Virus record (IMG/VR): IMGVR_UViG_2627853638_000001
Location: 1 to 25,512 of that record
Reading direction: 5' to 3' (one strand)
DNA length: 25,512 bases
Origin: a virus
Lineage: Duplodnaviria > Heunggongvirae > Uroviricota > Caudoviricetes
Shown here: positions 20,404 to 21,579 of the stretch, one piece after another
Numbering within the stretch: position 1 is the stretch's first letter
How the letters are laid out: each line of letters starts with the position of its first letter
Notes under the pieces: generated by a model
Database searches by the model: none
What the model saw: only the letters and a program-made list of their open reading frames with translations
Told to the model about the DNA's origin: nothing
Program-made: the position numbers and the translations under genes

Positions 20404-20829
20404 TCAATGCACAGCCACAATATTTCCTGCAGGGCCACCACGATTCATCTGGTTGAAACCAGCGATCGCCACTGCGACAAAATCATCAGCGTCTCTCACC
20501 AGTCGTTCCCGCGTCTCCACTAGTTCCCGAAAATAGGCTGAGCTATGGCTGCGCATTCGGGCCACCAGCAGAGGTGGCATTGCTTTTTCGATAGCTGGTA
20601 ACAACGCCTGAATTTTTTTAAGCGCATCAGGGGTGTCTTTCTCCACCCAGCGGAAAATTTTCTGAGTATTGCGAGCCAGGGCTTCCGGATGGCTGTCGTC
20701 ATACAGTTCCGGGAACGTCATTCCCAGCTCGAAATACGCTTTGGTAATTTTCGCAGCCGGTACTTTTTCGCCGTCCGGATGCGCCCAGGCATTCATCGCC
20801 ATGCGGATGTGTTCATGCTTGATTTTCAT
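20404..20829 (-). CDS. YdaT-like protein (Rac prophage YdaT family; CII-like regulator or toxin), 141 aa
   Basis: Begins MKIKHEHI, as I recall for Rac YdaT; lies downstream of a small Cro/YdaS-like gene and opposite a repressor. Confidence 0.5.
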   Translation of the reverse strand: MKIKHEHIRMAMNAWAHPDGEKVPAAKITKAYFELGMTFPELYDDSHPEALARNTQKIFRWVEKDTPDALKKIQALLPAIEKAMPPLLVARMRSHSSAYFRELVETRERLVRDADDFVAVAIAGFNQMNRGGPAGNIVAVH

Positions 20830-21080
20830 GAATCAACTCCCATCAGCTTTTTCGTAGTAGTTTTATTCCTGCCAATAGTTAAAATTGCATCGGCAGAAAA
20901 TAATCCGTTTGATGCAAGAGCGATTTTTTCAGCGTAATTTGTTTCGCCGGTATATTCTGTGCGAGGCAATTTTCCGTTATCCATCCATTTATAGATTGCT
21001 CTTTGGCTGACACCACAAACGTCGGCCACAACAGCAACGCGAACAGTTTTGATTACATCTTCAAGTGTTTTCTGGTTCAT
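20826..21080 (-). CDS. Cro/YdaS-like small HTH regulator, 84 aa
   Basis: Start at MNQKTLEDV with RBS GAGGG. HTH-like segment VADVCGVSQRAIYKW. Divergent from the repressor gene. Confidence 0.5.
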   Translation of the reverse strand: MNQKTLEDVIKTVRVAVVADVCGVSQRAIYKWMDNGKLPRTEYTGETNYAEKIALASNGLFSADAILTIGRNKTTTKKLMGVDS

Positions 21081-21096
21081 ATCACCCTCACAATGT

Positions 21097-21135
21097 GAAC
21101 TTTGAGTACATGCTATAACAGAACTGACAGTACAT
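21097..21135. promoter_or_regulatory. Putative operator: two 15-bp direct repeats (GAACTttGAGTACAT and GAACTgaCAGTACAT) in the divergent promoter region
   Basis: 13 of 15 positions identical, 24 bp centre to centre, between the cro-like and repressor genes. Confidence 0.45.
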
Positions 21136-21159
21136 TCAAGAGCGAATATCATTGAACTT

Positions 21160-21579
21160 ATGGTTCATGAAGATAAAGCGCGTAAAGAGTTCGCCAGTAG
21201 GCTTGCGCTAGCCTGTGAAAACGCTGGTTATGAACAACATGGAAGGCAGGCAGAAATTGCCCGTCGAATGAAATTAACACCAAAAGCGGTTAGCAAATGG
21301 TTTAATGGCGAAACAATTCCTCGCCGGGAGAAATTAAGGGAATTAGCAACACTAATAGGAACAACACCAACCTATCTTTTGGGAGAGGATACAGAAGAAA
21401 GTGGACAGGTACGTTTCTATCAGGAGTTAAATCCAAGACAAAAAATCATCATTGACCTTCTGGACGAGCTCCCTGACAGTGAGACAGATGAACTTTTAAA
21501 AACTCTTGAAGAGAAAAAACAGAAGTACAATGCAATTTACGAAGAGTTAGCACGAAAGAAAAAACAAAAAGCCTCTTAA
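21160..21579 (+). CDS. DicA/RacR-like XRE-family repressor, 139 aa
   Basis: N-terminal HTH; the C-terminus LDELPDSETDELLKTLEEKK resembles the DicA C-terminal region as I recall it. Divergent from the cro-like gene. Confidence 0.6.
   Translation: MVHEDKARKEFASRLALACENAGYEQHGRQAEIARRMKLTPKAVSKWFNGETIPRREKLRELATLIGTTPTYLLGEDTEESGQVRFYQELNPRQKIIIDLLDELPDSETDELLKTLEEKKQKYNAIYEELARKKKQKAS

Follow-up and report, generated by a model that had tools for sequence, protein, structure and literature searches.

Three prophage systems of Escherichia coli and the lambdoid phages HK022 and lambda provide the closest described relatives of the locus presented here. In Rac of E. coli K-12 a repressor gene, racR, is divergent from genes encoding a Cro-like protein and YdaT, and YdaT activates racR through a YdaT box at the 5′ end of ydaT (PMC11879457). 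In E. coli O157:H7, YdaT of CP-933P, a tetrameric POU-like helix-turn-helix (HTH) protein, footprints the sequence 5′-TTGATTN6AATCAA-3′ at the ydaS/ydaT junction (PMC9986795) and switches on transcription of the repressor operon from a reverse promoter, and toxicity of this protein was not detected; the YdaT of Sp12 is stated to be identical to it (PMC8630535). In Qin of E. coli K-12 the corresponding genes are dicA, dicC and ydfX. The CI repressor of HK022 binds its operators cooperatively and loops the left operator (O_L) to the right operator (O_R) (PMC8053113), and the mRNAs of lambda cI and paaR2 are leaderless (PMC8630535). Here we describe a repressor-cro-ydaT locus located at positions 20,404 to 21,579 of IMG/VR virus record IMGVR_UViG_2627853638_000001 (Caudoviricetes), of which positions 1 to 25,512, referred to below as the window, were analysed. 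The locus is very probably the immunity region of a lambdoid prophage, with the gene architecture of Qin and Sp12 and with operator and repressor specificity of the HK022 type. A close relative has been characterised for each component, and the architecture is an ordinary, textbook one; to our knowledge, no experimental study has addressed the combination of HK022-type specificity with a repressor tail of the DicA type and a CII equivalent of the YdaT type.

Proteins encoded by the probable immunity region

The first-pass annotation of this DNA had proposed a prophage immunity switch in which a repressor gene is divergent from a Cro-like and a YdaT-like gene, and this is borne out, as the three open reading frames (ORFs) are present at the positions claimed (Table 1) with repressor and cro facing away from each other. 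A gap of 79 bp (21081-21159) separates cro from the repressor gene, cro and ydaT share a 4-bp overlap, ATGA, and ydaT is followed by genes for a replication protein and a DUF977/Ren-like protein, all of these on the minus strand and only the repressor gene on the plus strand. The succession of an establishment activator (PHROG 163) after cro and then a replication gene (PHROG 3729) is a feature of lambdoid regions.

The repressor was assigned an HTH_3 domain by Pfam search (E 1.8e-9), and its residues 4-102 are 47% identical to the N-terminal domain of HK022 CI over 99 amino acids (E 6e-32), with a near-identical recognition-helix stretch (TPKAVSKWFNGE in the repressor, TPKAISKWFNGE in HK022 CI). 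This likeness stops near residue 100, while an alignment with DicA (29% identity over 112 amino acids, residues 30-137, E 5e-15) reaches both C-termini, and the C-terminal stretch LNPRQKIIIDLLDELPDSETDELL aligns with LSPKELELLELFNALPESEQDTQL of DicA and with LTSNQLELLQIFSAFPEDEQRQII of PaaR2, to which the overall match is weak (22% identity). On these alignments the repressor is a mosaic protein, its DNA-binding domain being of the HK022 type and its tail of the DicA/PaaR2 type. Peptidase_S24 (PF00717), which the Pfam search detected in CI of HK022 and of its Klebsiella and Providencia relatives, was not found in the 139-aa repressor. The protein thus fits the DicA/PaaR2 type, characterised by a short length (about 120-140 aa), an N-terminal HTH, a common C-terminal region and the lack of an S24 domain, and, unlike the longer HK022 CI, would therefore not be open to inactivation by RecA-stimulated self-cleavage. 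A search of PDB sequences with the repressor returned only a marginal match to the HTH of P22 C2.

Cro is 60% identical to HK022 Cro (E 1e-33) and matches PHROG 35, 'transcriptional repressor' (E 6.8e-14); a PDB sequence search with it gave no match. The most plausible start codon is the ATG at 21080, which follows a GAGG ribosome-binding site; the alternative 108-aa start at 21152 would fall within O_R3. The record of Escherichia phage Tritos uses this 108-aa start, that is, a start codon within O_R3.

YdaT belongs to family PF06254 (YdaT_toxin, E 1.2e-9) and to PHROG 163, 'CII-like transcriptional activator' (E 9e-45). Over residues 1-141 it is about 96% identical to PDB entry 3C4R (E 3.1e-90), it matches entry 8BT1, CP-933P YdaT, with E 4.6e-80, and it is 84% identical to the YdaT of Sp12/CP-933P. 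The earlier assignment of this protein to YdaT accordingly holds, its 33% identity to Rac YdaT extending across the entire length. The annotation of the cassette elsewhere is inconsistent: YdaT is a 'Rha family transcriptional regulator' in the Tritos record (3579-4327), a 'toxin YdaT family protein' in RefSeq and a 'toxin' in Pfam, and is labelled a CII-like activator by PHROGs and by the experimental literature.

Other parts of the first-pass description needed correction. Of the label DicA/RacR-like only the first half stood, as RacR matches the repressor at 12 of 33 positions, confined to the HTH, and the label Cro/YdaS-like is correct with respect to Cro only. The 84-aa protein was aligned by BLASTP with Rac YdaS at E 0.075 over just 18 residues, gave no alignment with CP-933P YdaS and nothing meaningful with DicC, and lacks PF15943, although Pfam detected this family in the YdaS proteins of both Rac and CP-933P. 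The RacR/YdaS-like designation was dropped, since homology to RacR beyond the HTH, to YdaS and to DicC was sought and not found. The proposed comparison with Rac racR-ydaS-ydaT is sound for the divergent layout, for YdaT and for the YdaT box at the ydaT 5′ end, which in Rac serves to activate repressor transcription, and unsound for RacR and YdaS; the toxicity on record is that of the YdaS and YdaT of Rac.

Operators and predicted promoters

The first-pass annotation had also noted two 15-bp direct repeats between the divergent genes. These exist, the 15-mers GAACTTTGAGTACAT (21097-21111) and GAACTGACAGTACAT (21121-21135) being identical at 12 of 15 positions, but are more properly described as palindromic operators arranged in tandem, and there are five rather than two. 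A repeat search recovered a further copy of the 15-mer at 21680, and the motif GAACN5GTWCAT has four exact matches in the window, all within 21097-21695, where 0.06 would be expected; as none of 100 shuffles reached four matches, chance is not a reasonable explanation of the 15-mers. The operator unit is an imperfect palindrome, TGWAC-N5-GTWCA, with three sites in the intergenic gap (O_R) and two downstream of the repressor gene (O_L).

In the HK022 record (X16093.1) annotations are given for three oR and two oL sites as well as for pR and pL, and upon alignment the oR and oL sites fall exactly on the five sites of the window. The half-sites (TGAAC / GTWCA), the spacing (24 bp from O_R1 to O_R2, 33 bp from O_R2 to O_R3 and 24 bp from O_L1 to O_L2), the offset of the repressor ATG within oR3 and the positions of pR and pL are all common to both. 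The 24-bp spacing between O_R1 and O_R2 also recurs in the Klebsiella, Citrobacter and Providencia relatives. When seven O_R regions from E. coli, Klebsiella, Citrobacter and Providencia phages were aligned, the half-sites proved invariant and the spacers and flanks variable, which, as judged by comparison of these sequences, is the signature expected of binding sites. An additional operator-like site near the 3′ end of HK022 cro is without counterpart in the window, as no such site was found downstream of O_R at up to two mismatches.

Three promoters may be placed by reference to HK022 (Table 1), and two of them, pRM and pL, were recovered by promoter scan at the positions homologous to HK022. 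The predicted -10 hexamer of pRM lies 7 nucleotides (nt) before the repressor ATG and a Shine-Dalgarno sequence is absent, suggesting that the repressor mRNA is leaderless, with a predicted start at the ATG or 1 nt before it, as in the analogous lambda cI and paaR2 transcripts. No terminator was found after the repressor gene in a standard scan.

A search of the window for TTGATTN6AATCAA with up to one mismatch returned a single match, which is exact and coincides with the junction of cro and ydaT; at least one match occurred in 14 of 100 shuffles. Sp12 carries the identical 18-mer where the corresponding genes meet. In the window, the box is adjoined on its right by HK022-type cro rather than ydaS; the joint of the mosaic falls within about 15 bp of the box. 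HK022 differs in this respect, its record annotating pE with flanking oE where the element in the window has a YdaT-type protein and box.

Table 1. Positions of genes, operators, predicted promoters and adjoining features in the window
Feature	Position	Strand	Remarks
Replication initiator / replisome organiser, 358 aa	19262..20338	-	Next gene of the pR operon; PHROG 3729 'replication initiation protein', E 2e-255
YdaT-family protein, 141 aa	20404..20829	-	Probable functional equivalent of CII (tetrameric POU-like HTH activator); PF06254, PHROG 163, PDB 3C4R/8BT1
YdaT box	20819..20836		TTGATTTTCATGAATCAA; O_M equivalent of CP-933P, predicted from the CP-933P footprint; spans cro stop and ydaT start
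Cro analogue, 84 aa	20826..21080	-	ATG at 21080 behind GAGG (GAGGGTGAT upstream)
O_R1	21096..21110		TGAACTTTGAGTACA; between pR -10 and cro ribosome-binding site; column-for-column with annotated HK022 oR
pR (predicted)	21112..21139	-	-35 TTGAAT (21139..21134), -10 TATAGC (21117..21112); homologous to HK022 pR; would drive cro, ydaT and the replication gene
O_R2	21120..21134		AGAACTGACAGTACA; between pR -35 and -10; overlaps pRM -35
pRM (predicted)	21124..21152	+	CTGACA, 17-nt spacer, TATCAT; 10/12 in promoter scan
O_R3	21153..21167		TGAACTTATGGTTCA; perfect 5-5-5 palindrome, equal to HK022 oR3; repressor ATG (21160) at centre
Immunity repressor, CI analogue, 139 aa	21160..21579	+	HK022 CI-like HTH_3 domain and DicA/PaaR2-like C-terminus
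O_L1	21656..21670		TGTACCATAAGCACT; degenerate, three lineage-specific substitutions; aligns with annotated HK022 oL
pL (predicted)	21670..21698	+	TTTACA, 17-nt spacer, CATTAT; 9/12 in promoter scan; position homologous to HK022 pL
O_L2	21680..21694		TGAACGCAAAGTACA; overlaps pL -10; aligns with second annotated HK022 oL
Stump of first pL-operon gene (ydfA-like, DUF1391)	21877..21896	+	20 nt left before IS1; collinear until 21896 with E. coli relative, in which a DUF1391 gene begins at the equivalent point
IS1, 768 bp	21897..22664		Replaces about 1.8 kb; insA/insB-sized ORFs present

Occurrence of the cassette and state of the prophage

The cassette is 99.4% identical in phage Tritos, where two of its genes are annotated as CI and Cro, and is 97% identical in three vB_EcoS phages; 410 complete E. 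coli genomes carry it. Both repressor and Cro match their counterparts in E. coli APEC O1 and in Tritos at 100% identity, and the same repressor occurs in another E. coli; the APEC O1 copy sits in a prophage still equipped with terminase, lysis and Q genes. At a greater distance, a search of phage records aligned 20911-21320 with cI-cro of HK022 and of Klebsiella and Citrobacter relatives at about 70-72% DNA identity, and 20974-21325 with a Providencia phage at 67%.

The first-pass view of the element as a decayed prophage is correct: Q, lysis, head and terminase genes are all absent from the window, insertion sequence (IS) elements of the IS1 type have entered it, and the element in the window is a defective remnant. 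Its left end comprises host genes from yehQ to btsS, after which follow ipaH, tail-fibre fragments, Mu-like baseplate and tail genes, an IS3-family transposase, a truncated DUF968 gene and a hok/sok region. Two IS1 copies, 100% identical and inverted with respect to each other, are located at 17207-17973 and 21897-22664, the left one ending the pR operon. The edges of the right copy map to 8077 (window 21896) and 9875 (window 22664) of a collinear E. coli locus, and the stretch lost to it comprises, in intact relatives, the remainder of ydfA, ydfB, ydfC, dicB, a DUF1482 gene and the 5′ end of an exonuclease gene; the equivalent Tritos interval also has an annotated dicF. The ydfC/dicB/exonuclease arm is found on this side in both Sp12 and intact relatives, and the left operon of the latter, ydfA-ydfB-ydfC-dicF-dicB, is that of Qin.

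The inverted IS1 pair brackets a 3.9-kb block containing an Ead/Ea22-like gene, the DUF977 gene, the replication gene, ydaT, cro, the repressor gene and the operators; this block is collinear with intact relatives and represents a substrate for inversion or for composite-transposon-like movement. Beyond the right copy an exonuclease ORF (22650-24860, plus strand), composed of an Exonuc_VIII N-terminal fragment and an Rv2179c-like 3′-5′ exonuclease domain, lacks some 245 nt at the 5′ end, removed by IS1, and opens at a TTG in or adjoining the IS1 end, a possible case of IS1-driven fusion or read-through.

The 358-aa product of the replication gene is named 'phage replisome organizer' or 'DnaT-like ssDNA-binding domain-containing protein' in RefSeq. 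Within this gene ATCGGCTTC, which reads GAAGCCGAT on the coding strand, occurs four times at 19637-19768, as two pairs 96 bp apart; these repeats, which translate into a recurring EADSA motif, are candidate iterons of an origin.

The O_L1 site of the window, TGTACCATAAGCACT, differs at 21661, 21663 and 21667 from the sequence TGTACTAAAAGTACT of APEC O1, of another E. coli and of Tritos. The three changes are clustered within 7 bp, one of them affecting a conserved half-site base, and the remainder of the roughly 1.6-kb region shows only 3 and 4 differences from the two E. coli copies. The variant was found in none of 406 E. coli genomes with a full-length match, the best identity over 21620-21740 being 97.5%, and exact-match scans of genome contigs for the O_L variant and for the IS1 junction gave no hit. 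It may have arisen as a single complex mutation, or may reflect relaxed or altered selection on pL control following the loss of the left operon to IS1.

Proposed regulation of the switch

By reference to the related systems, the 139-aa repressor is predicted to bind the TGWAC-N5-GTWCA palindromes as an oligomer. Occupation of O_R1 and O_R2 would shut off pR, and with it cro, ydaT, the replication gene and the genes beyond, and occupation of O_L1 and O_L2 would shut off pL, while binding at O_R3, which covers the -10 to +1 part of pRM and the presumed leaderless start codon, would result in negative autoregulation. A distance of about 560 bp separates O_L from O_R, and repressor oligomers might bridge the two clusters in the manner of HK022 CI, and bridging by octamers has likewise been proposed for octameric PaaR2. 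The HK022-like Cro would compete for the same operators. YdaT made from pR is expected, by analogy with CII and pRE, to act as a tetramer on its box and to stimulate a weak reverse promoter within cro, thereby contributing to establishment of repressor synthesis.

This arrangement has in common with lambda a tripartite O_R between divergent promoters, an O_L beyond the repressor gene, a repressor mRNA which is probably leaderless and an activator gene after cro. It differs from lambda in that the C-terminal domain of the repressor and the CII equivalent are without sequence similarity to their lambda counterparts, in that O_L has two recognisable sites as opposed to three, and in that the repressor is predicted not to be cleavable by way of RecA. 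With CP-933P/Sp12 it shares the order repressor, Cro analogue, YdaT and replication genes, and a short non-S24 repressor with a common C-terminal motif; the repressor and Cro are of a different specificity type, the operators of CP-933P being palindromes of the GTTTAGTAA type, and the paaA2-parE2 toxin-antitoxin genes do not follow the repressor gene of the window. Qin resembles it in the DicA-like repressor, related through to the C-terminus, and in YdfX, which is similar to the N-terminus of YdaT, and differs in its unrelated DicC and in a dicB operon that the window has lost to IS1.

In the absence of a LexA-like S24 domain induction would need an antirepressor or some other route, and the switch of the remnant, if currently expressed, is most likely held in the repressed state. 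It would then still keep the pR genes silent and confer immunity to homoimmune phages.

A number of observations weigh against parts of this scheme. The hexamers of pR (TTGAAT / TATAGC) are a weak match to consensus and score below the threshold of the promoter scan, such that this promoter is assigned by homology only. Candidates for a pRE-like promoter within cro (-10 hexamers at 20880, 20899 and 20951) score just 7-8 of 12 and a relaxed promoter scan found no convincing reverse promoter, nor can the reverse promoter of CP-933P be transferred by homology, as cro is unrelated to CP-933P ydaS. Positive autoregulation in the style of lambda is doubtful because O_R2 overlaps the -35 hexamer of pRM, and the left operator may be impaired owing to the three substitutions in O_L1, one of which is in a half-site.

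Alternative explanations for the retention of the locus

That the locus is retained as a defence, the repressor guarding the host against homoimmune Tritos-like and possibly HK022-like phages and this benefit explaining its integrity, is a possible though doubtful explanation. Homoimmune phage genomes carrying a 97-99% identical cassette are on record, the recognition helix and the operator half-sites are common to HK022-type phages, and a Ren-like exclusion protein (DUF977) is still encoded; integrity may, however, just reflect a short time since acquisition or decay.

Unlikely, and somewhat disfavoured by the evidence, is the first-pass suggestion of a repressor-addicted kill switch. On this reading loss of the repressor would turn on pR, and YdaT, Cro or replication initiated at the origin of a prophage unable to excise would kill or arrest the cell, with selection consequently keeping the repressor and the ipaH-bearing remnant. 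Repressors of defective prophages are often essential, as shown for RacR (PMC5700377, PMC5700373) and for DicA and CohE (PMC11481867), but the essentiality of DicA in Qin is caused by a left operon of the dicB/dicF type (PMC11481867), precisely the operon that IS1 has deleted here. Similarly, Rac YdaT is toxic on expression (PMC11879457), whereas the closest characterised YdaT, that of CP-933P, with 84% identity, showed no toxicity (PMC8630535), YdaS is absent from the locus, and it has been argued that YdaS and YdaT are equivalents of Cro and CII whose toxicity is an artefact of overexpression (PMC5917428). Killing by in-situ replication is conceivable because a replication initiator with four GAAGCCGAT-like repeats, the candidate iterons, remains under pR; Cro would nevertheless re-repress pR once derepressed. 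The survival of three intact regulators and a replication gene in a degraded element, with repressor and Cro identical to those of Tritos, fits such selection, yet near-identity to phage copies is equally explained by recent acquisition, and conditional essentiality is a generic by-product of lysogeny rather than proof of a selected stabilising function. If the repressor were essential, it would add one more case to the known conditionally essential repressors of cryptic prophages.

A more elaborate version is less probable still, and we offer it as speculation. The repressor might be a natural chimera of HK022-type operator specificity and a DicA/PaaR2-type oligomerisation tail not cleavable by way of RecA, which has given rise to an SOS-blind type of immunity, inducible in intact phages by antirepressor alone; in the remnant, which has lost antirepressor, excision and late genes, it could have become conditionally essential, with derepression firing the resident initiator and origin in situ and so helping to fix the ipaH-carrying remnant in the chromosome.

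A type II toxin-antitoxin pair of the YdaS/YdaT type, as would be read from the Pfam names 'YdaT_toxin' and 'YdaS_toxin', from the PF06254 match and from the RefSeq product name, is extremely improbable and was rejected, as the YdaS-family partner is missing, PF15943 being absent here, and as the literature stands against it, YdaT being a DNA-binding tetramer with a defined operator (PMC9986795) and the CP-933P experiments having concluded that YdaS-YdaT is not a toxin-antitoxin module (PMC8630535).

The identification as a lambdoid immunity region matters little beyond annotation. It provides a better label, namely CI analogue, Cro and CII-like YdaT in place of a 'toxin YdaT' module, and homology to HK022 and CP-933P allows five operators, the YdaT box and three promoters to be annotated. 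The locus is also an example of the exchange of modules among lambdoid switches: a DNA-binding domain, Cro and operators of the HK022 type are joined to a DicA-type tail and a YdaT-type CII equivalent.

Other features of the window

Outside the immunity region, the tail-fibre assembly and Mu Gp48-like baseplate genes abut the IS3-family transposase and the truncated DUF968 gene (10983-13315, minus strand; 13555-14711, plus strand), where IS activity seems to have brought together pieces of phages of different types. A sok antitoxin RNA was identified at 16108-16283 (minus strand; Rfam RF01794, 115.6 bits), and hokD is annotated collinearly in relatives, predicting a type I toxin-antitoxin locus of the hok/sok type within the same remnant. 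At the tail-fibre end a 547-aa ORF (7294-8937, plus strand) corresponds to the type III secretion system effector and E3 ubiquitin ligase IpaH ('ipaHe' in genomes of enteroinvasive E. coli) and adjoins genes for an S-adenosylmethionine-dependent methyltransferase and a DinI-like protein. Together with CssrB (see below) and best hits in enteroinvasive E. coli, ipaH suggests that the DNA derives from a Shigella-like or enteroinvasive E. coli-like source. Beside ipaH, Rfam assigned CssrB (chromosome-encoded Shigella small RNA B, 228.9 bits) and IS009 at 6987-7166 and 6027-6246, respectively, both on the minus strand.

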